Below the pieces are notes generated by a model, which was not told the DNA's origin, did not search any database, and worked only from the letters and a program-made list of their open reading frames with translations. 64,000 bases of DNA from Candidatus Levyibacteriota bacterium (GTDB taxonomy: Bacteria > Patescibacteriota > Microgenomatia > Levybacterales > UBA12049). Shown piece after piece: positions 4,111-62,744 of the stretch (its first letter is position 1; each line of letters begins with the position of its first letter). A program made the position numbers and the translations under genes. The stretch spans positions 342,780 through 406,779 of the forward strand of contig JBDRBE010000004.1 of NCBI GenBank assembly GCA_043823085.1, given 5' to 3'.

Positions 4111-4179
4111 AAAATTTGAATAGTGCCATCGAAGCCAATTAAAGTTAAAGCTTGTTATGTTATAATTATTCCAGTCTTA

Positions 4180-6003: not shown

Positions 6004-7323
6004 CTAATCACTCTCTCTCTTTTTTTCGACACTATAAAATCTTATTCTATCTCCCCTAAAAAGTAAATCGATTTCGCCTGTTGGTCCGTTTCGATGCTTG
6101 GCAATTAAAAGTTTCATCGGCATTGTTTTTCCGTATTCTTCTTCGGTTCTATACAAAAACATCACCACGTCCGCGTCTTGTTCAATAGCTCCACTTTCCC
6201 GAAGATCCGCAAGCTGCGGTTTCCTCTCTCCCCTGTGCTCAACAGCACGCGAAAGTTGGGAAACTGCCAGAACCGGAACTTTAAGTTCTCTTGCCAAATT
6301 TTTTAAAGATTGGGAAACAATTGAAACTTCCTGAACCCGGTTGTCATAACGTCTCCCCGGATCTGCCAACTGTAAATAGTCAACGATAATCAATTTTATT
6401 TTATGCTCTAGCTGAAGTCTTCTTGCTTTAGAACGCATATCCGAAACAGAAAGTCCCGGCGTATCGTCAATAAAAATTGGCGCATCTGCAAGCTGTCCCA
6501 TGGCTTCTGACAAATTGCTAAAATCGCTTTCTGAAAGTTTTCCGGTTTTTAATCTCCAGGAATCAACATCTGCCTGATTAACCAAAAGTCTATCCACAAC
6601 TTCCTCCTTGCTCATTTCAAGGGAAAAAAATCCAACCGGAATTTTCTCATTAACGCCTATAAATTGTGCGATATTTACTGCCAGCGCTGTTTTTCCCTGT
6701 CCGGGACGAGCCGCCAAAATTATCAAATTTGACTCCTGAAGTCCGGAAAGCATATTATCTAAATCCATGAAACCTGTTTTTATACCGCGGAACCCCGCTC
6801 CCTTTTTATGCAGTTCATCAATTCTGTCAAAACTCTCGGCTAAAGCCTCACGAATTGGAATAAACCCTTTTGAAATTTGCCATTGAGAAAGAGAAAAAAT
6901 TGATGACTCGGCTTTATTGAGAATATCTTTTACTTCCTCTTCGCTGAAACCAAGTTCCGAAATTTCGTTGCCTGCCTTTATTAATGACCTTTTTAGAGAT
7001 GCTTCTTTTATAAGAAGAGCGTAGTGTTCAACATTTGCCGCGGTCGGAACTTTATTAATAAGATCGCTGATAAAAGACGCTTCGATTTTTTTGTCCATTT
7101 TTTCTTTTTTGAGTCTTGAGGTTAATGTAAGAATATCGATTGGTTTTTTATCTTCATATAAAGTTAGCATCACATTGTAAATAATGGCGTTTATGTCGTT
7201 ATAAAAATCTTTTGGAGAAATAATTTCGGAAACAATACTTATTGCATCTTTATCAATAAGAATTGCGCCCAAAACGCTTTCTTCTGCCTCGTCATTATGT
7301 GGAAGGATGCGTGAAACTACCAT
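6004..7323 (-). CDS. dnaB: replicative DNA helicase DnaB
   Basis: 439 aa. N-terminal DnaB domain (LPHNDEAEESVLGAIL). Walker A GARPGQGKT. RecA-like C-terminal domain. Confidence 0.9.
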   Translation of the reverse strand: MVVSRILPHNDEAEESVLGAILIDKDAISIVSEIISPKDFYNDINAIIYNVMLTLYEDKKPIDILTLTSRLKKEKMDKKIEASFISDLINKVPTAANVEHYALLIKEASLKRSLIKAGNEISELGFSEEEVKDILNKAESSIFSLSQWQISKGFIPIREALAESFDRIDELHKKGAGFRGIKTGFMDLDNMLSGLQESNLIILAARPGQGKTALAVNIAQFIGVNEKIPVGFFSLEMSKEEVVDRLLVNQADVDSWRLKTGKLSESDFSNLSEAMGQLADAPIFIDDTPGLSVSDMRSKARRLQLEHKIKLIIVDYLQLADPGRRYDNRVQEVSIVSQSLKNLARELKVPVLAVSQLSRAVEHRGERKPQLADLRESGAIEQDADVVMFLYRTEEEYGKTMPMKLLIAKHRNGPTGEIDLLFRGDRIRFYSVEKKRESD

Positions 7324-7324: not shown

Positions 7325-7400
7325 ATACTAGTTTATTAGCGTCTAGCGGCTAGCGTTTAGTTTAACTATACGCTATACACTATTAACTAGACGCTAGTAA
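7325..7400. repeat. ACGCTA/TAGACGCTAG word-repeat block
   Basis: Sequence ttagcgtctagcggctagcgtttag..aactatacgctatacactattaactagacgctag. Same word family as 31980-32010, 32302-32360 and inside dnaX at 45001-45070. Confidence 0.5.
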
Positions 7401-7898
7401 TACTTTTTCCAACTCCGCCGGTAAGCTTTCTTTTTTTACAACGTATTTGGAAACTGATTTTAACGAACTGTCAAGACCTGAATCTGCTTTAAGTTTATTT
7501 TCCTCACCGTAAAAAATAGCAACTTTCGGTTCAATATTGGTAAGAATCGACGGGTCAAACTTTTGGTCAACATGAATTATCGCAATATCATACCCTTTTG
7601 TTTCTGCTTTAATTTTTTCCAATTCCGATGATTTTCCCAAAATTAAACTTATTCCGTCTACAAAAAGATCATAGGTGTGATTAAGCGAAGAAACCTTGAC
7701 GCCGGAGAACTCATACTCCCCCGCTCCATTTATTAAAATCCGTGAACCTTCAACCTTAGACGAATCAAATTCGCAATCTTTTAGAAGTAAAACGGCATCG
7801 CTTGGTGTTTTTGTCTTTAACATTGAAGGGTCAACAAGAAGCGACGAATTTTTTCCTTTTATTCTTAAACAATTTTCTCCGACAAGTTGTATTTCCAT
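7383..7898 (-). CDS. hypothetical protein. It may have a degenerate metallo-beta-lactamase-fold-like N-terminus.
   Basis: 171-aa ORF. N-terminus MEIQLVGENCLRIKGKNSSLLVDP resembles short MBL-fold proteins, but the His motifs are absent. Confidence 0.3.
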   Translation of the reverse strand: MEIQLVGENCLRIKGKNSSLLVDPSMLKTKTPSDAVLLLKDCEFDSSKVEGSRILINGAGEYEFSGVKVSSLNHTYDLFVDGISLILGKSSELEKIKAETKGYDIAIIHVDQKFDPSILTNIEPKVAIFYGEENKLKADSGLDSSLKSVSKYVVKKESLPAELEKVLLASS

Positions 7899-9980: not shown

Positions 9981-9987
9981 TTCCCCG

Positions 9988-21630: not shown

Positions 21631-21650
21631 AGTTAACGCTTTTAGAAAGC

Positions 21651-21805: not shown

Positions 21806-21808
21806 TCA

Positions 21809-23795: not shown

Positions 23796-23955
23796 ATCCT
23801 TTTGGATTTCTTGACGTTGGATATTCTTGATATTCTTGACCTTGACGTTTTTGACTTTTTGATATCTTGAAATCAAGAATTCAATTCTTCAATTCGTCAG
23901 CTGACGAATCAAGATCAAAAATATCGCACTTCCAACTTCTAGATATCTAATTTCA
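23796..23955. repeat. palindromic intergenic element (TTCGTCAGCTGACGAA core flanked by TTGAAGTCTTGATATCTTGA words)
   Basis: Family copy between rpsF and ssb. Confidence 0.6.
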
Positions 23956-31147: not shown

Positions 31148-31708
31148 ATGGCAAAAGCTGATAAAAAAATCGAAGACCCGAATTTGTGTCCCAAGTGCGG
31201 CTCAACACTTGCCGAAATAACCGTCACCAAAACCGGACGAAAACTGCAAAGATGCGCTAAAGGCTCCTGGGATCCCGAGACTAGAAAAAATGTCGGATGC
31301 GATTATGTCAAATGGTTTGAAATTGAGCCGCAAGAACTGGATGAAATATGTCCCAAATGCGGCAGTAAATTAGTGTTGGCAGTTACCCGTTTTGGAAAGA
31401 AAATGAAAAAGTGTTCGAAAGGCTCTTGGGATAAAGAAGCCAAAAAAGCTGTCGGATGCGATTATATCGAATGGATCAATGGAACGACAGAACCATTAGA
31501 TGAAGAATGTCCGGACTGCCAAGAAAAATTGGTTTTGTTTACAACTGTAAACGGTAAAAAAATGAAAAAATGTTCAACCGCAGGATGGGACAAAATTGAG
31601 CGCAAAGCAACCGGCTGCCCGTATGTTTACTGGCTCAAGCCCAGTGAATATCCCCAAAATATTGATAGCGGCGGTGAAGAATATCTTCCCCCAGAACCGG
31701 AAGAGTAA
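31148..31708 (+). CDS. protein made of three tandem topoisomerase-I-type C4 zinc ribbons
   Basis: Three repeats of CPKCGS..(K)CSKGSWD..VGCDY(I/V)(K/E)W. Confidence 0.55.
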   Translation: MAKADKKIEDPNLCPKCGSTLAEITVTKTGRKLQRCAKGSWDPETRKNVGCDYVKWFEIEPQELDEICPKCGSKLVLAVTRFGKKMKKCSKGSWDKEAKKAVGCDYIEWINGTTEPLDEECPDCQEKLVLFTTVNGKKMKKCSTAGWDKIERKATGCPYVYWLKPSEYPQNIDSGGEEYLPPEPEE

Positions 31709-31766: not shown

Positions 31767-31979
31767 ATGGGAAGGAAAGAATTTCGTCCGTTAAATGGAT
31801 TAAATCCCCGAGGAGTTCATTCTGGAAATGGCGGGAAAGAAACATTTTCATTATCACCAAGACAAGAAAGAATCAAGCTTAAAGAAAGCGTGAGAGCATG
31901 GACAGAAGGTGGCGAAGGAACGTATTATGAATCATTAGGCAAAAAAGCTGTTGAAACAGGCGCGCTCAAACACCCCTAA
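31767..31979 (+). CDS. small hypothetical protein (70 aa)
   Basis: Preceded by TTGACA..TATAAT. Followed by the perfect hairpin GTCAAACG-N9-CGTTTGAC plus a T-tract at 32012-32045. Confidence 0.3.
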   Translation: MGRKEFRPLNGLNPRGVHSGNGGKETFSLSPRQERIKLKESVRAWTEGGEGTYYESLGKKAVETGALKHP

Positions 31980-32088
31980 ACTATACGCTATCCCCTATTT
32001 CCCTATACGCCACAGTCAAACGTGGCTGTCGCGTTTGACGCGACGCTATTTTTTGCATATTTTTACAATTGTGCTAAAATCAAGGCGT

Positions 32089-32301
32089 ATGACAAGTGCA
32101 TTAGCAGAAACTCGTGAATTCCCTAGGAAACGTGTTATTCATGATAATCAAAAAACGGCTACAGTCGTCATAAATCTGGATGGTACTAATGAGGGCCATC
32201 GCGGTTTTGTTGATCCGAACAAATTAAGAAGAGAACTCAGACTATATCGGGGACTGGGACCAAGATTTCACGGCCATCACCCTCATCATCACCGCCATTA
32301 A
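32089..32301 (+). CDS. small hypothetical His-rich protein (70 aa, ends HGHHPHHHRH)
   Basis: Own promoter TTGCAT..TGCTAAAAT. The downstream sequence repeats that of the previous small ORF. Confidence 0.3.
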   Translation: MTSALAETREFPRKRVIHDNQKTATVVINLDGTNEGHRGFVDPNKLRRELRLYRGLGPRFHGHHPHHHRH

Positions 32302-32486
32302 ACTATCCCCATTTCCTATCCCCCCTAAACGCTAGACGCTATTAACTATACGCTAATTTCATTGTTCGTCCGAAAACACCGAATAAAACTTCCCTTCGGC
32401 CAATTTTTTGGCATGCCTTGACTGTTTAATAATTATAGGCTAAAATAGCATTTGTAATTTAAGAAAACTTATAATAGTTTTTACTC

Positions 32487-33881: not shown

Positions 33882-35321
33882 TTAGAGCTTTTTTACTTCC
33901 GAACCACTTTCGGTGTCCGTAACTTCCCAGCCGAGTTTTTTAATTCTCTGGCGAAGACCGTCCGCCAAATGAAATCTTTTTTGATATCGTAACTCTTCCC
34001 TTTCTTTAACCATTTTCATAATTTCCTCTGGGACTTTCTCTTGTTGAACATTGTTTTTCGTTTGAACTGATTTAAGGTTCAATCCAAGCACTTCATCCAT
34101 TTTATATAGGCTATTTGCTTTCGCAGACTTTGGCGCATTTGAGCGAATCATGTCCCAAACAGCAGCCATTGCTTTTGGCATATTTAAATCATCGTTTATC
34201 GCCTCCAAAAACTTCTGCTCGAACTCTGAACAGATAATTTTTGATTCTTCTAATTCATGCTTGTCCGCCGAAGCCTTGGCGAAGGCGGAATTCATAATTC
34301 CTAATTCTTTCCGCAAGTTTTCCAGCGCATTTTGCGCCGCTTCCAAGGCTTCCCAAGTAAAATTCATTTTTTGTTTGTAGTGAACAGTCATTGCCAAATA
34401 TCGAAAAGAAAGAGGATCAAATTTACGCTTTTCAATTTCCGATAAAACATAAACATTTCCTTTTGACCGTGACATTTTTTCATTATCAACAAGTAAATAT
34501 CCTCCGTGTACCCAATAATTAACAAACTTTTGTCCGGTCGCCCCTTCAGATTGCGCAATTTCATCTTCGTGATGAGGAAAAATTAAATCCTCTCCGCCTG
34601 TATGAACATCGATCGTAATCCCCAATTCATTAATCGCCATCACGCTACATTCAATATGCCAGCCGGGAAAACCCTCTCCCCACGGACTTTCCCATTTCAT
34701 AAGTCTCGCACCTTCCGCTTTTTTCCAAAGCGCAAAATCAATACTGTCTTTTTTATCTGTTTCAACAGAAACGCGGACTGCTTTTAATAAATTATCCATT
34801 TTGTCCAAAGTGTTTCCAGAAAGTTTTCCATAATCCTTGAATTTTTTAACGTCAAAATAAACTGTGCCATCAACCTCGTATGCCAAACCTTTTTTGAGAA
34901 GAACTTTTATAATTTCAATCATTTCTTTAACATTTTCCGAGGCTTTAGGAAATTTGTTGGCCTTTTTAATATTGAGTTTTTCTTCGTCTTCTAAATATAG
35001 CTCCGTGTAGTGCTCTGAAATTTCCTGCGGAGTTTTACCTTCTTTTAGCGCCTCTTCTATTATCGGATCGATTTGATTATCTTGATTTTCCCCGGGCCGC
35101 CTCATGTGTCCGACATCGGTAATATTTTTAACGTGCTTTACTTTGTAGTCATTATATTCCAAAGTCCGGCGCAAAAAATCAGCTGTTAAATATGTACGCA
35201 TATTGCCGATATGAACCTCCCGATAAACTGTGGGCCCGCAAGTATACATGCCGACATTGGGCGGATTGATGGACACAAACTCCTCGATTTTTCTTGAAAG
35301 TGTGTTATAAATTCTTAACAT
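33882..35321 (-). CDS. cysS: cysteinyl-tRNA synthetase
   Basis: HIGN motif. KMSRSKGN (KMSKS) motif. Zinc-binding CGPTVY. Confidence 0.9.
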   Translation of the reverse strand: MLRIYNTLSRKIEEFVSINPPNVGMYTCGPTVYREVHIGNMRTYLTADFLRRTLEYNDYKVKHVKNITDVGHMRRPGENQDNQIDPIIEEALKEGKTPQEISEHYTELYLEDEEKLNIKKANKFPKASENVKEMIEIIKVLLKKGLAYEVDGTVYFDVKKFKDYGKLSGNTLDKMDNLLKAVRVSVETDKKDSIDFALWKKAEGARLMKWESPWGEGFPGWHIECSVMAINELGITIDVHTGGEDLIFPHHEDEIAQSEGATGQKFVNYWVHGGYLLVDNEKMSRSKGNVYVLSEIEKRKFDPLSFRYLAMTVHYKQKMNFTWEALEAAQNALENLRKELGIMNSAFAKASADKHELEESKIICSEFEQKFLEAINDDLNMPKAMAAVWDMIRSNAPKSAKANSLYKMDEVLGLNLKSVQTKNNVQQEKVPEEIMKMVKEREELRYQKRFHLADGLRQRIKKLGWEVTDTESGSEVKKL

Positions 35322-36009: not shown

Positions 36010-36030
36010 ACTTTGTTTTATTTAGATTTT

Positions 36031-36190
36031 TGCGAGGAGGCATAAAATTTTCGCCGTTCGCATTTTGAGCTTAACATAAAAAGAACCGATTGAAAAGAGA
36101 CCTAATGAACAAATTAAGTAATTTTTAAAGAATGACTGTTGCGAACTGCGGAACAAGAAAACTTTTGTGCCGACTTCAGCAAAAATCTAG
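36031..36190. mobile_element. MITE-like element, second full copy (GGCATAAAATTTTCGCCGTTCGCATT ... GCGAACTGCGGAACAAGAAAACTTTTGTGCCGAC)
   Basis: Same terminal inverted repeats as 21651-21805. Confidence 0.6.
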
Positions 36191-41521: not shown

Positions 41522-42150
41522 TACTCACTCCTTCCTTCCATGGCGCGTTGGAGAGTTAATTCGTCGGCGTATTCAATATCTGAACCGGTGGGCAGTCCCC
41601 TGCCAATTCGTGTTATTGTTAATTGTTGATTGTTGATTGTTGATTGTTGGCGAAGTTGCTTCGCCAAGTACATCGCCGTCGCCTCCCCTTCCATGGTCGG
41701 ATTCGTCGCCAGTATTATCTCGCGGACTAATGCTGAACTCGAACGCGGAACCGCGCCGACTCGCTCTAGCAGTTGGTGAATATAAATTTCATCCGGGCCG
41801 ATATTGTTGAGCGGATCAATCCTCCCATGGAGGACATGATAAACGCCGTTATACCTGCCGTTTTTTTCCAGCGCCAAAACATCCAAGGGCTCTTCAACCA
41901 CACAAATAGTTGAATCATCTCTTTTCTCATCAGAACAAATATTACAGGGGTCTTGCTCCCCTATCATAAAACATTTCGAACATAAGACCGTATCTTTTTT
42001 CAAATTGATAATAGATGAAGAAAATCTATCCAGTTCACCTTGAGGAACATGCAGTAAATAAAATGTTAGCCTCTGCGCTGTTTTTGGCCCAATTCCCGGC
42101 AGTCTTTCAAAGGACTCAATCAAATTCGCAATTGCTTTTGGGACTCTCAT
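41518..42150 (-). CDS. recR: recombination protein RecR, carrying an in-frame heptamer-repeat insertion
   Basis: HhH segment GIGPKTAQRL. C4 zinc finger CSKCFMIGEQDPCNIC. Toprim domain. (ATTGTTG)x5 at 41615-41649 encodes QQSTINNQQLT. Confidence 0.85.
   Translation of the reverse strand: MRVPKAIANLIESFERLPGIGPKTAQRLTFYLLHVPQGELDRFSSSIINLKKDTVLCSKCFMIGEQDPCNICSDEKRDDSTICVVEEPLDVLALEKNGRYNGVYHVLHGRIDPLNNIGPDEIYIHQLLERVGAVPRSSSALVREIILATNPTMEGEATAMYLAKQLRQQSTINNQQLTITRIGRGLPTGSDIEYADELTLQRAMEGRSEY
41615..41649. repeat. ATTGTTG heptamer tandem repeat (x5) inside the recR coding sequence
   Basis: Seen directly in the sequence. The same repeat is inside proS at 49581-49615. Confidence 0.7.
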
Positions 42151-42295
42151 ATTGGAATTCTTGAAGTCAGATTTCCTTGACGTTTTTGATCTTGATTCGT
42201 CAGCTGACGAATTGAAGTCTTGAAGTCTTGATATCTAGAAATCAAATTATCAAGAAATCAAGTTCAAGAAAATCCCACTTCTATCTTCAATGATT
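42151..42295. repeat. palindromic intergenic element (CAGCTG core, TCAAGAAAATCCCACTTCT terminus)
   Basis: Between recR and prs. Confidence 0.6.
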
Positions 42296-43255
42296 CTATT
42301 TTTTTATTTCTTCGGCGATAATATCAGCGACTGTTAGAATTTGCAGTTTGGGAAATCTTTTTTCTCTTGGACAATAAACCGTATCTGTCACAAAAAATTT
42401 CTTCACTGCCGATTTTTGCAAAATTTTTGGCGCACTCTTTGAAAATACTGAATGCGTCACAAAAACATAAACTTCCTTTATCCCCAATTTTCGGAGAAGT
42501 TTTGTCGCGGTAATTATTGTTCCTCCAGATGAAATCATATCATCAACAATAAACGCCCTTTTAATTTGCTTTAAACTGATATTTTCCAAACCCTCAATTT
42601 TATCTGCTGTCACTTGTCCGGTTTCCAAATTTCTGCTTTTGACAATCGCGCCAAAAAACATATCATTTAACATTTGCGAAAGCAATTTTATCCGTCTTAA
42701 TCCTCCCATATCCGGTGAAATCAAAAGGCTCTGCGAATTATTCCATTTATTTTTTTTAATTGTTTTGGCAAAAAGAGAAAGCGCAGAAAGATGAATAATC
42801 GGCATATGAAAAAGCTCGGGAATTTTAATAGAGTGGAGGTCAAAACAGATAAGTTTATCCATCCCCATCGCTTCTAAAGTTTTGATAATAACTTCCAAAG
42901 ACACCGCCTCGCCTGTTCTAAAAAGATGATCCTGCCTTTGATAACCAAGATACGGAATAACAGCGGTAATTGATTTTGCGCCGCTTCTTCTTAGAGCATC
43001 GACAATAAAAAAAAGCTCCATGTAATTTTGGTCAACAGGCGTACAGCAACTTTGCAAAACAACGCATTTTTGGTCTAAAACTTTGTCAATAATTCGAACG
43101 CGTTTTTCGCCGTCCGGGAAGATATATATTTCCAGAGGTGTTGGACTTGTGCTTAATTTACCTGCGAGTTTTTTTCCAAGTGTCTTACTGGAACTACCGC
43201 TTATAATCTTCACAACAGTTATTGTACTATGTGTCGAAAAAAAATCAATAAGCAA
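42296..43255 (-). CDS. prs: ribose-phosphate pyrophosphokinase
   Basis: PRPP synthetase motifs (DLHS, VDDMISSGGTI). Confidence 0.9.
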   Translation of the reverse strand: MLIDFFSTHSTITVVKIISGSSSKTLGKKLAGKLSTSPTPLEIYIFPDGEKRVRIIDKVLDQKCVVLQSCCTPVDQNYMELFFIVDALRRSGAKSITAVIPYLGYQRQDHLFRTGEAVSLEVIIKTLEAMGMDKLICFDLHSIKIPELFHMPIIHLSALSLFAKTIKKNKWNNSQSLLISPDMGGLRRIKLLSQMLNDMFFGAIVKSRNLETGQVTADKIEGLENISLKQIKRAFIVDDMISSGGTIITATKLLRKLGIKEVYVFVTHSVFSKSAPKILQKSAVKKFFVTDTVYCPREKRFPKLQILTVADIIAEEIKK

Positions 43256-43543: not shown

Positions 43544-43704
43544 CCCCTACTGTTTAGATTTCTTGACGTGAGATATTTTTGATATTCTTGATCTTGATTC
43601 GTCAGCTGACGAATTGAAGTCTTGAAATCTTGATATCTTGAGTTCAAGAAATCAAAAATTCAAGTTCAAGAAAATCCCACTTCTCACTTCAAAAATTCTA
43701 ATTA
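43544..43704. repeat. palindromic intergenic element, the fullest copy (TTGACGTGAGATA ... TTCGTCAGCTGACGAA ... GTTCAAGAAAATCCCACTTCTCACTTCAA)
   Basis: Between ybaB and dnaX. Confidence 0.6.
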
Positions 43705-45249
43705 CTATTTCTGTTTTAGTGAAATTGAAACGTCGATTGGGCTTCCTATAATTTGTTTACAAACCTTTTCTATAATATCACGAGTTTTTCTTTCTTCCAA
43801 GCGCTCTTTATGAAACTTATATCCGGCTTCTATGGCAAGATTTTTCCCGTCAAAACTTTTTAAAGTACATCCTCTTAGAACTCCTGCCACCGAATGATTG
43901 TAGGGCTTGACCAAATCAATAAGCTGTTTTAGGACATTTTTTTCGTCAAATATTCCGGGTTGATTAATCGCAGGATTCGATAACACTTCTTCTTTCTCCA
44001 CCTTTTTGTCGCGGAAAGACGCAGAACCGGACGCCAAACTACGCTGACTTTGAACATCTTGGTTTTGATTATTAGTTTCGCGTTTTTCTGCATTTTGTTC
44101 CGCATTCTTCTGCGCCTGTATTCCCCACTCCACAATTGCAATTTCAAGCGGCAATTGCGGCAGGACCGCATATTTTATTTCTCCATACGCCTTTGCCAAA
44201 ATTTCAATCAAAGACTTAATTTCATTAAGTTCTAAATTATAAGTTACAAGTCCTAAGTTATTTTCTACACCGACTTTTGATAATAAATTTAAATGCAGTT
44301 GGGAAATCATTTCTGATATAAAATATTTAACATCTATCCCCTCTTTTGTAATTCTTGATACCAATTCTAAGCTTTTTTTAGTGTCTTTTTTAGAAAGATA
44401 GTCCAACATCTTTGATACTTGATACTTGATACTTGATACTTGATATTTCTCCTCCACCAATTCTTTGGTAATCTTTTTTTTATTGGACATTAAAACAAGT
44501 TCTTCTAAGATTTTTACACCGTCGCGAAAACTGCCGTCGGACAATGAGGCAATATATTTTAGTTCTTCTTTTTCTATTGGAATATTTTCCTCTTTGGCAA
44601 TCCGCGAGAATGAACGCAGAAGTTCTTCTTGGGTCGCTCTCTTAAAAGAAATATGAAAACAACGCGAAAGGATAGTCGCCGGAACTTTTTGCGGTTCCGT
44701 GGTACAAAGAATAAAAACAGCATGACTCGGCGGCTCTTCTAAAGTTTTTAAAAGCGCATTAAAAGCTTCTGTGGTCAACATGTGAACTTCATCAATAATG
44801 TAAACTTTTTTAGAAGCCAGAGCAGGCGAAAGCCGTATTTTCTCACGCAAATCTCTTATCTCATCAATCCCTCTATTTGATGCTCCGTCTATTTCCAAAA
44901 CATCTAAATTTGTGCCATTAGTAATAGATTTACATTGCAAGCATTTATTACAAGGCTCAATACTAGCATCTAGCGTATACCTGCCTGCCGGCAAGGCAGG
45001 GCGTTTAGCGTTTAGTTTTTTTTCTTTTGAACTAGACACTAATTTATTAGACGCTAGACGCTCGCAATTGAGGATTTTTGCGACAATTCTGGCGGTTGAA
45101 GTTTTTCCAAGTCCTTTAGGTCCGGTAAAAAGAAAAGCGTGTTGTTCTGATTTTTGATCGCCGGAAAAAACAGCGGTTAATTTTTCTCTAATTTCTTGAC
45201 TATCAAGATCTTTAATTTTTTGCGGCCGATATTTTCGATAATAAACCAT
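43705..45249 (-). CDS. dnaX: DNA polymerase III subunit gamma/tau, carrying two in-frame repeat insertions
   Basis: AAA+ Walker A GPKGLGKTS and sensor motifs. (CTTGATA)x5 at 44410-44447 encodes SIKYQVSSIKYQVS. An ACGCTA-word block at 45001-45070 lies inside the Zn module, between NCE and EPCNKCLQC. Confidence 0.85.
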   Translation of the reverse strand: MVYYRKYRPQKIKDLDSQEIREKLTAVFSGDQKSEQHAFLFTGPKGLGKTSTARIVAKILNCERLASNKLVSSSKEKKLNAKRPALPAGRYTLDASIEPCNKCLQCKSITNGTNLDVLEIDGASNRGIDEIRDLREKIRLSPALASKKVYIIDEVHMLTTEAFNALLKTLEEPPSHAVFILCTTEPQKVPATILSRCFHISFKRATQEELLRSFSRIAKEENIPIEKEELKYIASLSDGSFRDGVKILEELVLMSNKKKITKELVEEKYQVSSIKYQVSKMLDYLSKKDTKKSLELVSRITKEGIDVKYFISEMISQLHLNLLSKVGVENNLGLVTYNLELNEIKSLIEILAKAYGEIKYAVLPQLPLEIAIVEWGIQAQKNAEQNAEKRETNNQNQDVQSQRSLASGSASFRDKKVEKEEVLSNPAINQPGIFDEKNVLKQLIDLVKPYNHSVAGVLRGCTLKSFDGKNLAIEAGYKFHKERLEERKTRDIIEKVCKQIIGSPIDVSISLKQK

Positions 45250-45325
45250 AAACTAAAAATTTCTAAGTTCTAATTTCTAATTGACCTAAATAATTTAGAA
45301 ATTAGGTTAATTAGGTTAATTTTTA

Positions 45326-46183: not shown

Positions 46184-46390
46184 TCAGTCTTTTAAAGGCG
46201 GCCGCATTCCAAGAGAGATATGCGGTCGTTTCTTGCGATAGTATACCAGATAATTCTCAACCTCTTTGGTTAAAACAGGTAATTCTTTTAATTTATATTT
46301 TGTCCAACCTAAACATTCCTTTCTCAAGCTCCTGTTAAAACTCTCAATAAGTATCTGCCGGAAAGGTCTTGAAAAGCCATAACCGTTCAA
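46184..46390 (-). pseudogene. C-terminal remnant of a DDE (rve) transposase, IS3/IS481-like
   Basis: ESFNRSLRKEC...YYRKKRPHISLG matches the conserved end of the integrase core domain. Only about 65 aa remain. Confidence 0.55.
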
Positions 46391-47608: not shown

Positions 47609-48676
47609 TTATATTTTTTCTAAAACTTGAATAATCTGTTTTAAAGTTAATCTTGATGCTCTCATTTTTGGGTTTTTGGCACTGCCGTTTAGAAGCATTT
47701 TCTTTGATACGTGCAAAAACCACGATGCTTGCGGATCCATTTTTTTGAATTTTTCATAAACCAAAGTCAGATCTGCTCCTTTTTCTCCGCTGACACTGGG
47801 CCGCGCTTTTATCCTTACATATCCTTTTCTCGGATCGCGTCTTACAACTATTGCATACCCCATTTTTTGCGCCAATTTTATAACCGAGTCATTAACTGTC
47901 TCAACACCCAAACCTTTCCCCCATCTTGTCTTAAACTCAATTCCTTTCTCGGCGATTTCTTTTTCGGCCCAAACTCTGTTTTCAAAATCATGTAAAATTG
48001 CATCAAGGCACTGCGAAATAAAATCAACATAAAAATTATCATCATTTGGCTTTTCAAGTTTCAACCCGTCTAAAATTCCTAAAATTGCAAAATCATGATA
48101 AAAAGCCGTAGGATTTTCCCACAAAGCTTCTCTAAAATGATCAATATCTGTCACAACCTTTACAATTCTACCTATGGCTTCGCTCTTGTCTTTCATTCTC
48201 TCGCTCTCCGAACTTTGAACTTTGCCCTGAACTTGTCGGATGGATGAATTTTGAACTTTCTTGATGTAGTCCCAAACCAAACTGGATGCGCTGATGCTTT
48301 CATCGGAAGTTAAATGATGGTCCAAAGGTCCAAGTCCAGTATCAACATGAATCATTTCGTTGTCATCAATCTTCTCGATAGCATCTAAAGAAGAATTTTT
48401 GCCGCGGGGAGGCACAAAATTTTCGCTGTTCGCATCTTGTCGAGCGCCAATGCGTTGATGAACGCCTTGAGACTCATCGCGAGACAACTGCGGAACAAGA
48501 AAATTTTCGTGCCGACCTAAGCGGCTCAAACCCTCTTTTCCTCTCACTCGCAACCTTTCTCCCGATAAAACAAATCTCACTTCTGCATTTTCCCATCCTG
48601 CTAAAAATCTTTTTGTCAACCAAACCGAGCAAATCGCATCTAAATCAGGAGAAGTATGGGTAACAACAATTTTCAT
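47609..48676 (-). CDS. DHH family phosphoesterase (NrnA-like) carrying an in-frame MITE insertion
   Basis: DHH motif I HTSPDLDAICS and the DHH motif in VDTGLGPLDHH. A 125-nt MITE copy at 48401-48525 is translated between them. A GAACTTTG-repeat insert lies at about 48181-48260. Confidence 0.6.
   Translation of the reverse strand: MKIVVTHTSPDLDAICSVWLTKRFLAGWENAEVRFVLSGERLRVRGKEGLSRLGRHENFLVPQLSRDESQGVHQRIGARQDANSENFVPPRGKNSSLDAIEKIDDNEMIHVDTGLGPLDHHLTSDESISASSLVWDYIKKVQNSSIRQVQGKVQSSESERMKDKSEAIGRIVKVVTDIDHFREALWENPTAFYHDFAILGILDGLKLEKPNDDNFYVDFISQCLDAILHDFENRVWAEKEIAEKGIEFKTRWGKGLGVETVNDSVIKLAQKMGYAIVVRRDPRKGYVRIKARPSVSGEKGADLTLVYEKFKKMDPQASWFLHVSKKMLLNGSAKNPKMRASRLTLKQIIQVLEKI
48401..48525. 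mobile_element. MITE-like element copy inside the DHH phosphoesterase reading frame
   Basis: GGCACAAAATTTTCGCTGTTCGCAT ... CTGCGGAACAAGAAAATTTTCGTGCCGAC. 125 nt, which is about 42 codons with no stop. Confidence 0.6.
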
Positions 48677-48897
48677 ATACTGTAAGTATACAAAAAATTC
48701 AAACTCTTGACAAACTTTTAAAAATGTTACAATATATTATTATACCGAATTTTTGAGGTGGGAAGTGGGATTTTCTTGAACTTGATTTCTTGATAATTTG
48801 ATTTCTAGATATCAAGATTTCAAGACTTCAATTCGTCAGCTGACGAATCAAGATCGAAGACGTCAAGGATATCTAACTTCAAGAATTCCAAATAATT
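48677..48897. repeat. palindromic intergenic element plus overlapping divergent promoters
   Basis: GGTGGGAAGTGGGATTTTCTTGAACTTGA ... TTCGTCAGCTGACGAA. TTGACA on the plus strand at 48706. On the minus strand, TTGTCA-N17-TATACT-N6-ATG serves the DHH gene. Confidence 0.55.
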
Positions 48898-49371: not shown

Positions 49372-51079
49372 TTACTTCGTCTATTGTTAACATTTCTGTT
49401 TCGCTTTTAGCTCTTTCTTTGCATTCAATTTTATCACCGGTTTTGCCTGAAATTACTAAACGTATTGGACAACCGATTAAATCGCAGTCGGCGAATTTTT
49501 CCCCTGCCGAAATATCTCTATCGTCATAAAAAACCTCAATCCCCGCATCTTGCAATTTTTCATAAATTTCATCCGCCATTTTGTTGATTGTTGATTGTTG
49601 ATTGTTGATTGTTACGAGGTGTACCAAGTATGGTGCAACCGCTTCCGGCCACTTAATCCCTTTATCATCAGAGTGAACTTCAACAACCGCCGCCATTGTC
49701 CTTGCAATTCCAATTCCATAACAACCCATGTAATATGGTTTTTCTTTTCCGTTTTCGTCTGTAAAAGTGGCGCCTTTCATTTTTGAAGAATAGTGAAATC
49801 CAAGCTGAAAAATATTTCCAACCTCAATCCCCCGTTTTTCTATCAGTTTTTGACCGTTTGGCGCGGCGTATCCTGCTTTTGCAAGCTTGAACTCATAAAA
49901 CTTTTCAGGCTTGGGCAAGTCCCTGCCAAAATTTACATTAATATTGTGAATATTGGTTTTATTCGAACCCATTTCAAAATTCTTTCTTCCTCTCATTGAC
50001 TCATCCATAAAAATTCTGACATCTTTTGGTAAATTCAAAAGCCCGGCATATCCCACTTCTGCTCCTGTTATTTTTCTGACAGTCTCGGCCGACGCAAGCT
50101 TTAAAGAATAAACTTTGGCAACATGCGAGAGCTTAGTTTCATTTATCTCAAAATCTCCTCTGACTGCCGCGGCAATAACTTTTCCATTCTCGTCTTCAAA
50201 GAGAAGTGTTTTTGTGGTTTGTTCAACCGGAATATCAAGAAACTTCGCCAGCTCAAAAACTCCAATAATCCCTTTGCCCTCAACTTCTTCCATCGGCCTC
50301 TCTTCTTCACCGCTTTCTATTTGGTTTAATGAAAGTTTTGCAACGTCTTCATGGACACAATAACTTCCATCCTCTGTTGTCAAATACCTGCTTTCTCCGC
50401 TTTCATGTTCCACCACAAATTCATGACAATATTCCCCCCCGATATAACCGTTATCCGATTCAACAATAATAGTTTTCAACCCCAAACGCTCAAAAATTTT
50501 AGTGTAAGTTTTTTTCATTTTTTCATACTCTTTTTTGAAATCTTCCTCTGTTGTATGAAAAGAATATCCGTCTTTCATCACAAATTCTTTAACTCGCAAA
50601 AGCCCCCCCCGCGGCCGCAGTTCATCCCGAAACTTGGTAGAAAATTGGTAGAGATTAAAAGGCAAATCTTTGTAGCTTATCTGAAATTTACGAACTAAAT
50701 CAACCAGCATTTCCTCTGCTGTCCCACCCAAAACAAATTCCATTTCGTTTCTGTCTTTAACTTTTACAAGTTCAAAACCAACCGAATTTGTGCGGTTTGT
50801 TTCTTTCCATAAAGCAACCGGATGAAGAATTGGTGCTGTGATTTCCTGCGCACCTGCTTTATCCATTTCAACTTTTATAATATCTTGAATTTTCTGGTGG
50901 ACTTTTTGGCCAAGCGGTAAAAAATAATAACGCCCTGCTGTACTTTCGCGGATAAATCCTGCCTTATAAAGAAGTTTATGGGAAGTAATAACCGCATCCT
51001 TTGGCGCTTCCCGAATTGTTCTTCCAAACAGTTTTGAATATCTCATAACAAAAGTATAGCACAAATCCGCGATTGTCAT
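49343..51079 (-). CDS. proS: prolyl-tRNA synthetase (bacterial type), carrying an in-frame heptamer-repeat insertion
   Basis: Class II motifs and an anticodon-binding C-terminus. (TTGTTGA)x4 at 49581-49615 encodes TINNQQSTIN in the linker. Confidence 0.9.
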   Translation of the reverse strand: MTIADLCYTFVMRYSKLFGRTIREAPKDAVITSHKLLYKAGFIRESTAGRYYFLPLGQKVHQKIQDIIKVEMDKAGAQEITAPILHPVALWKETNRTNSVGFELVKVKDRNEMEFVLGGTAEEMLVDLVRKFQISYKDLPFNLYQFSTKFRDELRPRGGLLRVKEFVMKDGYSFHTTEEDFKKEYEKMKKTYTKIFERLGLKTIIVESDNGYIGGEYCHEFVVEHESGESRYLTTEDGSYCVHEDVAKLSLNQIESGEEERPMEEVEGKGIIGVFELAKFLDIPVEQTTKTLLFEDENGKVIAAAVRGDFEINETKLSHVAKVYSLKLASAETVRKITGAEVGYAGLLNLPKDVRIFMDESMRGRKNFEMGSNKTNIHNINVNFGRDLPKPEKFYEFKLAKAGYAAPNGQKLIEKRGIEVGNIFQLGFHYSSKMKGATFTDENGKEKPYYMGCYGIGIARTMAAVVEVHSDDKGIKWPEAVAPYLVHLVTINNQQSTINKMADEIYEKLQDAGIEVFYDDRDISAGEKFADCDLIGCPIRLVISGKTGDKIECKERAKSETEMLTIDEVIKRLCQGRG

Positions 51080-52604: not shown

Positions 52605-53606
52605 TTACTTCTTCTTCACCGGATGTCTTCCAAATTGCCAGCGCATGGCGGCAACCACTTTGTTACGAAATCCGTTTGGTGATATTTCTTTATCTTTATC
52701 TGAATTATCGCGAACGCAAACTGATGCGTTAAGGACTGGCGTCTCAACACCCATTTTCTTTGCCATTTCAACAGTCCAGTGCCCCTCCCCTTTTGTTTTT
52801 CCAGAACCTCCGCCTGAACCAATGACCGATGAAATATCCGAAAGGTTTTGGTCTTTTTTTAATTCATTTAAAGTCCAGCCAACTAAACGCGATTCTATTA
52901 TTGAACCGTTATTGTAAATTCGAAAGACTTCGCTAAGGTCATATTTAAACGGAGCATATTTTAAAATCGCCGCGCCTTCGCCAATTGCCTCCATCATGCC
53001 ATATTCAATTCCGTTGTGAATTGTCTTGGCAAAATGTCCAGCTCCAATTGGCCCCAAATGCGCGTAGCCGTCTTTTCTGGCAGCAGATTTTAGAATCGGC
53101 TCAATTCTTTTGAAGTCTTCTTTTTGCCCTCCGACCATAATACATGCGCCATTTCTTGCTCCTTCTATTCCTCCGCTTATTCCGCAGTCCATATAATGAA
53201 TTTGTTTTTTTGCTAAAGTTTTTGCACGCCGCAAAGTATGTGTGTAAAGCGAATTTCCTCCGTCAATTATCAAATCGCCAGAGGATAATTTATCCATCAA
53301 CTCGTTTAAAACCGCATCAACGGCCTCTCCAGCGCTAACCATCAGCCAGATTATTCGTGGGGTCTTTAAAGTTTTAACTAATTCTTCTAAGGTTTTTGTT
53401 GTTGTTAAATTCCCACCATTTGAATTATGAATTATGAATTTTGAATTATGAATTTTTTTATTTTTCCATAATTCCTGATTCCTAATTCTTAATTCTTCTA
53501 TCGATTCTTTTGATCGATTCCACGCCACAATTTCCATCCCCTCTTCCAAAAGATGCAAAACCATTGCCTTTCCCATTTTGCCCAAACCAATAAATCCAAT
53601 CTTCAT
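52605..53606 (-). CDS. gnd: 6-phosphogluconate dehydrogenase-like NAD(P)-binding protein (short form), carrying an in-frame repeat insertion
   Basis: N-terminus MKIGFIGLGKMGKAM is a Rossmann fold. C-terminal 6PGDH domain. AATTCATAATTCA-type repeats at 53421-53500 encode RIRNQELWKNKKIHNSKFIIHNSNGG. Confidence 0.65.
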   Translation of the reverse strand: MKIGFIGLGKMGKAMVLHLLEEGMEIVAWNRSKESIEELRIRNQELWKNKKIHNSKFIIHNSNGGNLTTTKTLEELVKTLKTPRIIWLMVSAGEAVDAVLNELMDKLSSGDLIIDGGNSLYTHTLRRAKTLAKKQIHYMDCGISGGIEGARNGACIMVGGQKEDFKRIEPILKSAARKDGYAHLGPIGAGHFAKTIHNGIEYGMMEAIGEGAAILKYAPFKYDLSEVFRIYNNGSIIESRLVGWTLNELKKDQNLSDISSVIGSGGGSGKTKGEGHWTVEMAKKMGVETPVLNASVCVRDNSDKDKEISPNGFRNKVVAAMRWQFGRHPVKKK

Positions 53607-53666
53607 AATAGAAATTCTTACATTTATAAATAAGAGAGTCAAGTCCTAAATTATTTAAACAAATAA

Positions 53667-54679: not shown

Positions 54680-56115
54680 TTTCTCCCATCCTTCTGGATT
54701 AATTCATTTGCCTCTTTTGGTCCCCACGTCCCTGATTCATAATTCATAATTCCTGATTCCCGTCTCTTCCATCCTTCCAGAATTTTAGTGATAAACTCCC
54801 ACGAACTGTCAAGCTCGTCAGAGCGGTTAAAAAGCATCTGGTCACCAACAAAAATGTCCAAAAGAACTTTTTCGTATGCATTTGTACCTTTTGTATGAAA
54901 TTCGTCTTCGTAATTAAAATTCATATTTACTGTTCCCAACGACACTTTTGAACCCGGCTTTTTTGCGATAACGCGAAGACTAATTCCTTCATTCGGTTGA
55001 ATTCTGATAGTCAAAACATTTCCGGTCTCTGGACAACCATATTCTTTAAATAAAACATGGCAAGTTTGAATAAAAACTATAGAAATTTCCACAGTGCTTT
55101 TTGGCATTTTCTTCCCTACTCTTGCATAAAACGGCACATTTTTAAATCTTTCCGAGTCAACATATAATTTCATTGCAACAAAGGTTTCGGTATTTGATTT
55201 CGGATCAACATCCTTTTCTTTTAGATAGCCTTCATATTGTCCTCTTGCCACAAACTTATCAACCTCATTAGATTCTATGGAGCGGATTGCTTTAATTGCA
55301 TTTGCCCTAACATCACGCATATCGTCTCTTGTAAAGCTTCTTGGCTGTTCCATGGCAACTGCCGCTACCATTTGCATAATGTGATTTTGACCCATGTCCC
55401 TTAACGTCCCAACTCCGTCAAAAAACTTTCCTCTTCTTTCTATTCCCTTTTCTTCTGCAAGTGTGATTTGCACATGATCAATAAAATTTTTGTTCCAGAC
55501 CGGTTCAAAAATTCCGTTGGCAAATCTAAAAGCAATCATGTTCTGCACCGTCTCTTTTCCTAAATAATGATCAACCCTAAAAATCTGTCTTTCTTCAAAG
55601 ATCTCCGAAAGCCTTTTATCAAGCGCTCTCGCAGTCTCTAGGTCTTTACCAAAGGGTTTTTCAATAATAATTTTTGTCCACTTATTGCTTCCCTGTCCGC
55701 ACCCTTCGGAAAGTTTTGAATGATTAAGATGCTCTAAAATTTCCGGATAATTGGCTGGCGGCGTTGCCAAATAAAAAAGGCGCGTAACACAAGCGCCAAT
55801 TTCTTTATCAAATCCTTCCAGTTTTTTAATTAATTCTTCGTAATCTTCCTTTTCCTCAAATTTTCCTTGTTGGTAAAAAATATTTTTTGAAAACGCGTCC
55901 CAATCACTCTGACGATATGTATTATTAGAGTGTAAAAATTCTTTTAGAAGACTATGAAACTCGCTGTTTGTGAACTCTCTTCTTGCAAAACCAATGAGAT
56001 AAAATTTTTCCGGTAATTTTTTTTCTTGAAAGAGTTTAAAAAGAGAAGGAAGAAGTTTAGTCCGCATCAAATCCCCTGTTGCCCCAAAAATAATCATTGC
56101 AAATGGAGAATTCAT
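54667..56115 (-). CDS. zwf: glucose-6-phosphate 1-dehydrogenase
   Basis: NADP-binding GATGDL. Active-site segment DHYLGKE. Motif EKPFG. Small in-frame insert IMNYES from AATTATGAATTATGAAT near the C-terminus. Confidence 0.85.
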   Translation of the reverse strand: MNSPFAMIIFGATGDLMRTKLLPSLFKLFQEKKLPEKFYLIGFARREFTNSEFHSLLKEFLHSNNTYRQSDWDAFSKNIFYQQGKFEEKEDYEELIKKLEGFDKEIGACVTRLFYLATPPANYPEILEHLNHSKLSEGCGQGSNKWTKIIIEKPFGKDLETARALDKRLSEIFEERQIFRVDHYLGKETVQNMIAFRFANGIFEPVWNKNFIDHVQITLAEEKGIERRGKFFDGVGTLRDMGQNHIMQMVAAVAMEQPRSFTRDDMRDVRANAIKAIRSIESNEVDKFVARGQYEGYLKEKDVDPKSNTETFVAMKLYVDSERFKNVPFYARVGKKMPKSTVEISIVFIQTCHVLFKEYGCPETGNVLTIRIQPNEGISLRVIAKKPGSKVSLGTVNMNFNYEDEFHTKGTNAYEKVLLDIFVGDQMLFNRSDELDSSWEFITKILEGWKRRESGIMNYESGTWGPKEANELIQKDGRKWIQ

Positions 56116-56962: not shown

Positions 56963-58192
56963 TTATGGACCAAAAATATTTTTGCCGGAAATTAATCTGG
57001 TTAAATCATGAAAAGTTATTAAGGCAATTAAAGTCAAAAGTAATGCCATACCAATCGCGTGAGAGTAGCTTTCGAATTTGGCCGGAACTCTTCGCCGAGT
57101 TGCTACTTCTATCAGAATAAAAAACAATCTTCCACCGTCCAAAGCCGGAATTGGCAAGATATTAAAAAAAGCAAGCGAAATCGACAATATTCCGGCGAGA
57201 TTTAGAACCTGTAAAATTTTTTCTTTAAGATCGGGTATTTTAACAATATTTCCAACCAAAGAGTATATTCCTACCGGACCGGCAACGCTTTGGGAAATAG
57301 GCTCGGCGGTTTTTTCTTTTATCGAAATACCAATTAGCTGTCCCATGATGTTGAAATTGTAAGCCAGAAGATTTAATGGATGAGTAAATCCGGAAAATAT
57401 TTTTTGAGGAACAGTTTTATAATCTAAAACTACCATTGAAACCGGAAAAAAACTAATTCCGATTGCTCCCTCGTTTTTGGGAGGATTTATTCTTGGTGTA
57501 ATTTTTGCAAAATAATTTTTATTATTTTTTGCATCCTGCCATGCAACTGTAATTTCTTTTCCTTTATTTTTACTAATAATTTCGGCAAAATAATTCACAT
57601 CATTAACTTTTTGTCCATTTATAGAAAGAATCTTTGAAAAAGATTTAATTCCCGCAATTTCTGCCGGCGAGTTTTTGGCAACATCGGCAATAATTATATC
57701 CGAAGAGTTAGTTTGAGAAACGGCAAAAAATTTATGATCGCCCAAAAGCGGGAGCTGGGTTTTAAAATCGGAAATAAATAAAAATGCGTAGAAAATAACT
57801 GCGGCAAGAACTGTATTCATAAAAACGCCGGCCACTACAATCACCGCTCTTTGTCCGACCGGTCTTGCAAAAAACGCACGGTCTTTATTCTTAATTCTTA
57901 ATTCCTGATTTTTAATTCCCGGCCTGCCGCTACCGGCCTCATCCTCGCCATAAAGTTTTACAAATCCGCCAATCGGCAGCCAATTAATTGAATAAATAGT
58001 CTCGCCCTTTTTTATGCCAAACGCTCTTGGAGGAAGTCCAAACCCAAATTCTTCAACTTTTATCCCTAATTTTTTTGCTACAAAAAAATGCCCAAACTCG
58101 TGAATCAACACTAAAATCGAGAGAATAACCAAAAAAACAACGGCCGTAATTATCATAAATTTTGACTTATATATCGCGGGGAGCCTTTTCAT
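56963..58192 (-). CDS. rseP: RseP-type site-2 protease (M50) with a PDZ domain
   Basis: HEFGH zinc motif in TM1. PDZ domain. LDGG motif. In-frame insert IKNQELRIKNKD from the TAATTCTTAATTCCTGATT repeat at 57886-57921. Confidence 0.8.
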   Translation of the reverse strand: MKRLPAIYKSKFMIITAVVFLVILSILVLIHEFGHFFVAKKLGIKVEEFGFGLPPRAFGIKKGETIYSINWLPIGGFVKLYGEDEAGSGRPGIKNQELRIKNKDRAFFARPVGQRAVIVVAGVFMNTVLAAVIFYAFLFISDFKTQLPLLGDHKFFAVSQTNSSDIIIADVAKNSPAEIAGIKSFSKILSINGQKVNDVNYFAEIISKNKGKEITVAWQDAKNNKNYFAKITPRINPPKNEGAIGISFFPVSMVVLDYKTVPQKIFSGFTHPLNLLAYNFNIMGQLIGISIKEKTAEPISQSVAGPVGIYSLVGNIVKIPDLKEKILQVLNLAGILSISLAFFNILPIPALDGGRLFFILIEVATRRRVPAKFESYSHAIGMALLLTLIALITFHDLTRLISGKNIFGP

Positions 58193-62073: not shown

Positions 62074-62213
62074 GGGCTAGTTTTTAGAATCTTTGATGTG
62101 AGAAGTGGGATTTTCTTGAACTTGACCGTTTTGATATCTAGATATCTAGAATTCAAGAAATCGAAGATTCAAGATCAAAAATGTCAAAAATATCTCACGT
62201 CAAAAATTCTAGT
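62074..62213. repeat. palindromic intergenic element, a copy lacking the CAGCTG core
   Basis: Termini TAGAATCTTTGATGTGAGAAGTGGGATTTTCTTGAACTTGA and ATATCTCACGTCAAAAATTCTAG. Aligns with the reverse complement of the 43544 copy. Confidence 0.55.
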
Positions 62214-62744
62214 TCATCTCTCCAATTCCAAAAACTTATATTTATGTCCTTCCCACTTTCCTTCTTTTTCAAAAACTATTTTTTTGAATATTGATTCGTA
62301 TTCCGGGAAAAAAGTGTCGGCGTCTTTAACAGCATCTACAATTGTTAAATATAATTTATCCGTTAAACCAATCGCCTGCTGATAAATCTGTCCCCCCCCG
62401 ATAATAAATATTTCTTTTTTATTGTCATGCCAAACTTGTTTCGGCATCTCACGAGATTCTGAAGCCATTTTCAACGCTTCATCCAAAGAACTCGTAATTT
62501 TTAGCTTCGCAAGGCGTCGCCTTGCGAAGCTAGAATCTCGCGAAATAACTATGTTCGTCCTATTGGGAAGAGGATGGCCAATCGACTCGAAGGTTTTTCG
62601 CCCCATTATAATAGTATGGCCACATGTTTTTTCGCGAAACCGCTTCATATCTTCGGGGATTTGCCACAACAATTTATTATCGTTCCCAATTCCTCTGTCT
62701 TTTGAAATCGCTACGATGATGCTGATTTTTGAATTATGAATCAT
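62214..62744 (-). CDS. folA: dihydrofolate reductase, carrying an in-frame palindrome insertion
   Basis: DHFR motifs (IVAISKDRGIG, LLW, MGRKTFESIG). The 29-bp palindrome at 62503-62531 encodes SSFARRRLAKLKI. Confidence 0.8.
   Translation of the reverse strand: MIHNSKISIIVAISKDRGIGNDNKLLWQIPEDMKRFREKTCGHTIIMGRKTFESIGHPLPNRTNIVISRDSSFARRRLAKLKITSSLDEALKMASESREMPKQVWHDNKKEIFIIGGGQIYQQAIGLTDKLYLTIVDAVKDADTFFPEYESIFKKIVFEKEGKWEGHKYKFLELER
62503..62531. repeat. 29-bp palindrome AGCTTCGCAAGGCGTCGCCTTGCGAAGCT inside folA. Sister copy at 4082-4110.
   Basis: Seen directly in the sequence. GC-rich in an AT-rich gene. Confidence 0.6.

Follow-up and report, generated by a model that had tools for sequence, protein, structure and literature searches.

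A palindromic heptamer-word element in frame in the putative zinc module of DnaX in a Candidatus Levyibacteriota genome

The window analyzed here is a 64,000-nucleotide (nt) stretch of a metagenome-assembled genome (MAG) of Candidatus Levyibacteriota, a Microgenomates lineage of the Candidate Phyla Radiation (CPR); all bare coordinates are positions in it. Its dnaX gene, encoding the tau/gamma subunit of DNA polymerase III, contains an in-frame palindrome built of heptamer words of an ACGCTA family, and the same words recur between genes of the window and in related genomes. Three features define the locus.

43705..45249, minus strand: dnaX, DNA polymerase III tau/gamma, 514 amino acids (open reading frame [ORF], Pfam, and alignment to a PDB structure)
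44963..45063, minus strand: palindromic heptamer-word element, in frame, encoding E63-S96 (ERLASNKLVSSSKEKKLNAKRPALPAGRYTLDAS; folding, profile search, and structure prediction)
44980..45000, minus strand: nested GC-rich hairpin of 21 nt, CCTGCCTTGCCGGCAGGCAGG (PALPAGR), splitting the right arm of the element

The dnaX product matches the Pfam family DNA_pol3_delta2 (7.9e-39), has the expected clamp-loader domains, and is 100% identical to the gamma/tau protein of a Candidatus Levyibacteriota MAG. The gamma subunit of E. coli (1NJF) aligns to residues 2-64 and 97-248, bracketing the insert exactly. Cys62, Cys100, Cys103, and Cys106 are all kept, and the four cysteines are invariant in 30 relatives; the gap between the first two is 37 residues, whereas E. 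coli gamma has 8 there and 37 of the 120 Levybacteria-like DnaX proteins sampled have 8-10. By these alignments, DnaX is a clamp-loader subunit with an AAA+ domain and a putative zinc module (Cys-x37-Cys-x2-Cys-x2-Cys) in domain I. An earlier, sequence-only reading of this stretch had already noticed an interrupted zinc module; the interruption and the insert hold, with an excess of about 29 residues between Cys62 and Cys100 in place of the roughly 35 proposed and a module that the E. coli gamma alignment places in domain I, not in domain III. The same reading had raised the possibility of a disordered loop, in agreement with AlphaFold2, whose confidence score (predicted local distance difference test, pLDDT) is below 50 at residues 70-93 and about 90 on either side. 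The insert is predicted to be a disordered excursion at a point where the fold tolerates extra residues, and its translation would give peptides such as LNAKRPALPAGR.

At the nucleotide level, the element follows a plan of about 80 nt, with a (TAGCGTN)n arm, an A-rich loop, and an (NACGCTA)n arm. The left arm occupies 45028-45063, the loop 45016-45027, and the right arm 45001-45015 plus 44963-44979; the coding strand reads GAGCGTCTAGCGTCTAATAAATTAGTGTCTAGTTCA in the left arm, AAAGAAAAAAAA in the loop, and CTAAACGCTAAACGC..TATACGCTAGATGCTAG in the right arm. A block of these words had been placed at 45001-45070 in the sequence-only reading; the block is there, and its true span is 44963-45063. 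The RNA fold of the element has an energy of -45.6 kcal/mol (z = -6.6), and none of 200 shuffles is as stable. The nested 21-mer is single in the window and missing, as an alignment gap, from the dnaX copies of two related loci (L004 and L005); identical or near-identical 17-21-mers are found at 14 of 207 loci from several phyla, often inside other heptamer arrays, and at L132 a hairpin of this type sits in frame in recR as PASPAGR. A CTCAAT/ATTGAG extension of the stem is peculiar to the window. A frameshift of the kind known for E. coli gamma was considered and set aside by reasoning: the A runs lie in the hairpin loop near codon 76, and the product would be useless.

Outside dnaX, words of this family form or adjoin the following features in the window.

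7337..7397, no strand assigned: intergenic ACGCTA palindrome, 14 nt upstream of the dnaB ATG (dnaB 6004..7323, minus strand)
31981..32010, plus strand: word block CTATACGC / CTATCCCC / CTATTTCC, abutting the stop of a small ORF (31767..31979)
32027..32055, plus strand: intrinsic-terminator-like hairpin of 8 pairs with a T run, between ACGC words, after the first small ORF
32302..32360, plus strand: word block of TATCCCC words followed by AAACGCTAGACGCTATTAACTATACGCTAA, abutting the stop of a second small ORF (32089..32301)

With at most one mismatch, TAGCGTNTAGCG has seven matches in the window against 0.27 expected (0 of 100 shuffles reach seven), and these are confined to three places, 7337-7382, 32323-32341, and 44964-45063. 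ACGCTA/TAGCGT is counted 16 times, and ACGCTAN/TAGCGTN clusters lie at 7337-7397, 31981-32010, and 32302-32360 in addition to 44963-45063 within dnaX. The intergenic blocks that the sequence-only reading had listed (7325-7400, 31980-32010, and 32302-32360) are thus present as described, as are the blocks trailing each of the two small ORFs and the 8-pair hairpin with its T run. Its central proposal, that the extra DnaX loop is built from the words of the intergenic blocks, is borne out by a single nhmmer family profile that detects both the dnaX element (45062..44964, E = 2e-18) and the intergenic one (7338-7397, E = 1e-7, both strands). The latter element overlaps the stop of the upstream ORF 7383..7898 (minus strand), has a DNA fold z of -2.9, and precedes a gene identified as dnaB by Pfam. 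The DNA at 31975-32055 also folds stably (z = -3.75); the block at 32302..32360 is a direct array only, with no hairpin (z = 0.35), and the profile matches it partially, in the right arm only, at 32325-32356. Just upstream of the two small ORFs, at 31235-31594, a unit of about 159 nt is repeated three times in tandem (42-75-nt repeats, 67-75% identical); the units may be small paralogous ORFs.

The profile, built from copies in related genomes, gives full-length matches at L001, L003, L004, L005, and L148 and twice in the window. L004 has four copies within 21 kb; L003, L005, and the window have two apiece, and L001 and L148 have one. L004 is the syntenic locus of another Levybacterium, with copies in dnaX, twice inside a DHH-like gene, and once at the end of that gene; all four share the left end, an 8-nt left-arm spacer (GTAAATTA), the loop, and the right-arm words. 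Because copies at different loci share the spacer, loop, and left end besides the words, the whole unit appears to have been copied. Only one of the six frames of the family consensus is open (RLASSKLASSSKEEKLNARRYTLNA), and all coding copies use that frame. Five intergenic full-length copies, a small sample, end 4-14 nt before an ATG (L004 8688, L005 8769, L003 10001, window 7323, and L148 6000). The family alignment has 19 conserved pairs, which are nearly invariant with one compensatory change, and covariation is uninformative. Besides the in-frame dnaX copy, an ACGCTA palindrome immediately precedes dnaB in the window, and another immediately precedes dnaX in L003; the family is found at replication genes more often than would be guessed, in a sample too small to judge.

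The ACGCTAN word alone is not diagnostic of the element, because plain direct arrays of it occur in many phyla: three perfect words in succession are found in at least 120 stretches, mostly as plain direct arrays, and in only 9 of the 120 matches listed does an inverted partner lie no more than 120 nt away. Viral contigs contribute 18 stretches with the word array and seven with the nested 21-mer, and no clear sign of a phage vector was seen among these matches. One predicted viral contig (L212/L219, IMGVR_UViG_3300031651_000021) carries six ACGCTAN arrays, several of them immediately before a ribosome-binding site and ATG.

Heptamer periodicity is widespread in this genome and its relatives. 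The window has 22 lag-7 arrays against 2.2 expected and 13 lag-8 arrays against 2.6; lags 6 (10 arrays) and 9 (16 arrays), which are codon multiples, also exceed expectation, and background levels are seen at lags 4, 5, and 10. Related loci have 56 lag-7 arrays per 100 kb. Further heptamer families lie in and beside dnaX, and others are read in frame within recR, proS, gnd, zwf, and rseP of the window; those other than the first two below consist of in-frame ATTCATA/ATTCCTG and TTGTTGA words.

44407..44450, minus strand: second heptamer array in dnaX, (TTGATAC)x5, near-perfect on the plus strand, read as KYQVSSIKYQVSK (lag-7 scan and ortholog alignment)
45257..45284, no strand assigned: TTCTAAN heptamer array, 8 nt upstream of the dnaX start codon
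53417-53499: words in a gnd-like gene (52605..53642)
54729-54762: words in zwf
57880-57911: words in an rseP-like gene
41612-41652: words in recR
49578-49616: words in proS
34286-34310: words of the same families

The gnd copy is a full palindrome (RIRNQELWKNKKIHNSKFIIHNS) with, like the ACGCTA consensus, one open frame of six, and its ATTCATA family occupies the DnaX zinc loop of other Levybacteria. In ortholog alignments of recR, proS, gnd, rseP, and the DHH-like gene, the same loops hold different families in different genomes. The spacer upstream of dnaX in L003 likewise differs, holding an ACGCTA palindrome (9924-9994) and not the TTCTAAN array.

These arrays bear on whether the dnaX element was copied in or grew in place. 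Heptamer slippage beside native A-rich (Lys) codons, combined with template switching between arms, could have built the palindrome locally, in which case other loci would resemble it through a convergent preference for words or through gene conversion at a later time. The native loop, GAAAAAAAGACAAAAGG, is rich in A, as are the loops of the elements; same-word heptamer arrays exist as simple direct repeats in many phyla; and among long simple repeats of bacteria, heptamers are reported to be the most common unit (Mrazek 2007, cited by PMC4679880). The arrays in zwf (ESGIMNYESG) and at 44407-44450 of dnaX overlie native residues without a change in length, the dnaX orthologs having the looser KYQ(I/V)SxIKxQ(I/V); simple insertion therefore fails for these two, and both growth in situ and a functional hairpin stay alive as rivals. 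However, copies within one genome share words, the 8-nt spacer, the loop, and the left end, and the short-loop forms of dnaX lack an incipient inverted repeat: no seed hairpin was found in them. Local origin is, in our judgment, unlikely for the dnaX element.

The DnaX zinc loop is an unusually clear hot spot. In the sample of 120 proteins, 37 have the plain loop of 8-10 residues and 83 a longer one, and the longer loops belong to at least seven unrelated peptide/word families, of which the ACGCTA family is the largest (24 members). Six insert-bearing loci from five families were read as DNA, and in each the insert consists of inverted heptamer arrays around an A-rich loop, with differing words; all inserts whose DNA was examined fold as hairpins. 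The loop families are scattered over the DnaX tree and interleaved with short forms and half-deleted elements (P0106 has just the left arm, P0056 just the right). At 33-42% identity, eight more distant lineages have hairpin inserts of 23-34 residues at the same place, in yet other words; a scan of metagenomes for DnaX relatives gave mostly distant ones among the matches listed. The idea that each dnaX insert uses words private to its genome was rejected, the ACGCTA and ATTCATA families being shared with genomes whose dnaX carries another family. Insert presence is linked to heptamer density: once the insert is masked, lag-7 arrays in the flanks number 47 per 100 kb for inserts of at least 20 residues and 11 for loops of at most 12 (Mann-Whitney p = 4e-7, Spearman 0.64, statistics that ignore phylogeny). 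The Levybacteria-type loop of the DnaX P0004, ACGCTA words included, is encoded on one contig labelled as an uncultured Gammaproteobacteria MAG (L050, CAZPZA010000052.1, 38% GC), which is probably mis-binned.

CPR genomes are known for intervening sequences in their rRNA genes, and by that analogy the insert could be a sequence removed at or before translation (an intron, an intein, or a translational bypass); it could also be a misassembly. Inserts at the same site recur, however, in dozens of independent assemblies (NCBI, JGI, ENA, and Logan). Every insert is stop-free and a multiple of three, although stops lie in five of the six frames of the two elements checked; only inserts that are read through would be expected to show this pattern. 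The Pfam and Rfam scans matched no intein or intron family, Rfam finding one tRNA only in the window. Either form of this explanation is hardly credible.

Conservation within the insert acts on nucleotides more than on residues. The DnaX proteins of the window, L004, and L005 have about 62-65% of residues in common; where residues agree, the codon is also the same in 83-95% of cases within the insert and in 45-48% in the rest of dnaX (insert counts 18/19, 15/18, and 16/17; Fisher p = 5e-5, 6e-3, and 6e-5). Because synonymous sites are so much better conserved than elsewhere in the gene, the insert is conserved at the DNA level and not at the protein level. Peptide differences within the family (K/R and D/N) fall on the variable seventh base N of the word. 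The sequence-only reading had held that the same insert encoded by unrelated nucleotides in other lineages would count against a shared repeat; when this was looked for, the peptide RLASS..KLNAKRYTLDA was found to be encoded by the same nucleotides.

The loop could in principle be adaptive for the clamp loader as protein, for example by giving the zinc module a new interaction surface, with the nucleotide repeats incidental to it; it is in frame, hydrophilic, Lys-rich, and widespread in the clade. This would sit poorly with the conserved synonymous sites, with within-family variation that tracks the variable base of the word, with the predicted disorder, and with the frequent absence or partial deletion of the insert (P0106 and P0056), and no peptide is conserved across families. 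We consider an adaptive loop very improbable.

The hairpin might instead be a functional cis-element of dnaX, acting as RNA or single-stranded DNA and selected at this site with a replaceable sequence. Possible roles include a translation pause or mRNA processing at the zinc-module codons, or a structure sensed during replication. Hairpin potential is the sole constant across at least seven unrelated word families and distant lineages, and nucleotide conservation exceeds that of synonymous sites; the ACGCTA copies just upstream of dnaB and, in L003, of dnaX would also fit, and intragenic repetitive extragenic palindromes (REPs) have been noted mainly in replication/repair genes (PMC3733652). 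Against this role, 37 of the 120 close relatives and most distant ones do without the insert, the short-loop forms having no hairpin; the same elements occupy loops of the unrelated genes gnd, proS, rseP, recR, and the DHH-like gene; and presence follows the genome-wide density of heptamer arrays. A site-specific function is therefore, like growth in place, unlikely, and if anything slightly more so.

What is observed is a dispersed family with hairpin potential, a single open frame, nucleotide-level conservation, recurrent use of this loop and of others by different word families, and an association with array density. These properties are probably best explained if the dnaX block is one copy of a dispersed palindromic repeat of about 80 nt, selfish or neutral, lying in frame in a zinc-module loop. 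A copy would have become fixed, by insertion or by conversion from another copy, in the surface loop of 8-9 residues between the first two Cys ligands. It may have persisted because it was placed in the sole stop-free frame of six, encoding a hydrophilic, Lys-rich peptide, and the result would be a disordered, translated excursion of 29 residues that leaves the four cysteines in place. The words could be kept alike by mutual correction of tandem words and arms (slippage, arm-to-arm template switching, or conversion) or, alternatively, by renewal of copies from a genomic pool. Intergenic copies, filling intercistronic spacers and ending 4-14 nt before starts, probably act as RNA hairpins or insulators, and the in-gene copies would then be tolerated by-products; the tiny GC hairpin may have nested into the dnaX copy later.

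Several points weigh against a selfish or neutral dispersed repeat. No target-site duplication flanks any of 12 copies, whose right ends are not fixed and vary by whole words. Among the 20 window ORFs scanned, no tyrosine or IS200-type transposase (Y1_Tnp) was detected, and no transposase beyond an rve fragment. The insertion event is one that we infer from sequence comparison of diverged genomes, and translation of the insert is likewise deduced, not observed. The zwf and second dnaX arrays show that heptamer words can overlie native residues with no added length, the association with array density takes no account of phylogeny, and word conservation above the synonymous-site level could also mean function.

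A broader and more doubtful possibility, which we hold only tentatively, is that heptamer-word hairpins form an actively renewed class of elements in Levybacteria, other CPR, and several uncultivated phyla, repeatedly overwriting the same landing pads. These pads would be of two kinds, intercistronic spacers that border on a start codon and permissive loops in essential proteins (the DnaX zinc module, for example), and the words would be conserved across divergences at which synonymous sites saturate. If true, this would imply machinery specific for the sequence or the hairpin, whether a recombinase, a nuclease, or an RNA-binding regulator, and the hairpin might have a real part in expression of replication genes, given dnaX in frame and the dnaB and dnaX leaders.

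Whichever way the copies spread, in-frame palindromic repeats as such are an established phenomenon (PMC10969869, PMC3733652), and the dnaX case is an in-frame palindrome of this general kind, similar to Rickettsia palindromic elements (RPEs) and intragenic REPs, now in a CPR lineage. RPEs (Ogata et al. 2000, Science 290:347; 2002, Genome Res 12:808; summarized in PMC10969869) are likewise dispersed between genes and in frame in unrelated housekeeping genes, with one open frame, a hydrophilic peptide, fold-compatible sites, and several families per genome. They are 100-150 nt long, compared with about 80 nt here; unlike them, the Levybacteria elements have arms of tandem heptamer words and a CPR host, one loop is occupied by different families across lineages, and the words are conserved above the synonymous level. 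The likeness is one of kind only: membership in the Rickettsia families is not claimed, and the sequences are not expected to be related.

Intragenic REPs (GTAG- and CGTC-tagged; Di Nocera et al. 2013, PMC3733652) are superfamilies of small hairpin repeats that can likewise encode 20-30 residues within ORFs, often in replication/repair genes, as in dnaX; their ends can supply stop codons to neighboring ORFs, much as the element at 7337-7397 overlaps the stop of its upstream ORF. REPs are GC-rich stem-loops of 20-40 bp that carry a GTAG or CGTC tag left unpaired, and those with the GTAG tag are linked to REP-associated tyrosine transposases (RAYTs) (PMC3733652). In contrast, the main element here has an AT-rich composition, a length of about 80 nt, and heptamer periodicity. 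Only the nested 21-nt hairpin, CCTGCC..GGCAGG, is like a REP in size and GC content, but it lacks the tag, and no RAYT was seen among the 20 window ORFs. MITEs, the miniature inverted-repeat transposable elements, share the inverted arms, but the 12 copies here have no duplication, and no cognate insertion sequence (IS) was seen in the window.

Heptanucleotide repeats offer a third comparison. The TAACTGA repeats of Beggiatoaceae, Cyanobacteria, and Bacteroidetes (PMC4679880), the cyanobacterial short tandemly repeated repetitive (STRR) sequences, and the long simple sequence repeats (LSSRs; Mrazek 2007) similarly have 7-nt units that contain stop codons, with several words per genome. TAACTGA arrays lie a few nucleotides upstream of starts that lack a clear Shine-Dalgarno sequence, a proximity to starts that is seen here too; they have stop codons in all three forward frames and, like the elements here, have occasional reverse copies that are translated within ORFs and a patchy occurrence among phyla (PMC4679880). 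Unlike those direct arrays, the elements described here join two inverted arrays into a long hairpin with a conserved loop as one dispersed unit, and their in-frame copies lie in the middle of essential proteins and not at the ends. A full-text literature search, including word strings, found no description of these elements in CPR. Vioque, in 1997, reportedly described a helix of the cyanobacterial RNase P RNA gene that contains STRR heptamer arrays; there, too, heptamers would be tolerated at a permissive, variable position of an essential gene, in that case an RNA gene with direct arrays as opposed to a protein gene with palindromic ones.

Apart from scattered intragenic REPs, in-frame palindromic repeats have been described as peculiar to Rickettsia, and the window extends them to CPR; the heptamer-array arms link RPE-like elements with bacterial heptanucleotide repeats, which are poorly understood. 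One short loop of an essential, universally conserved protein has taken in at least seven unrelated families, a natural experiment that sets protein tolerance against DNA targeting as the cause of hot spots, and the stronger conservation of the words than of synonymous sites makes a process at the DNA or RNA level measurable. Such inserts also inflate and distort CPR protein alignments, and recurrent "peptides" such as RLASS.., LNAKRYTL.., RNQESGI.., and PAGR.. should not be taken as motifs.

The window contains further repeats and remnants. An rve-type integrase fragment (46184..46390, minus strand; rve_3, 2e-10) lies in a 578-nt gap between the S21 and HIT genes and is a transposase remnant adjoining the dnaX neighborhood. 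A repeat of about 150 nt made of TCTTGA(A/T)N 8-mers has three full copies, 84-92% identical (42152-42301, 43553-43703, and, inverted, 48747-48892), and partial copies at 5883-6012, 23791-23925, and 62078-62211; it fills entire intercistronic spacers, including prs-recR and dnaX-ybaB. A third repeat measures 130-170 nt, has inverted ends that are conserved (GGCACAAAATTTTCGC / GAAAACTTTTGTGCC), and occurs at 21640-21810 and 36020-36190 (intergenic) and at 48393-48535, where it lies in frame inside the DHH-like gene (47609..48676) and adds about 55 residues (..LSRLGRHENFLVPQL..). Finally, a 37-nt near-perfect palindrome, TAGCTTCGCAAGGCG(A/T)CGCCTTGCGAAGCTA, is present at 4081-4117 and 62496-62532 and is 97% complementary.

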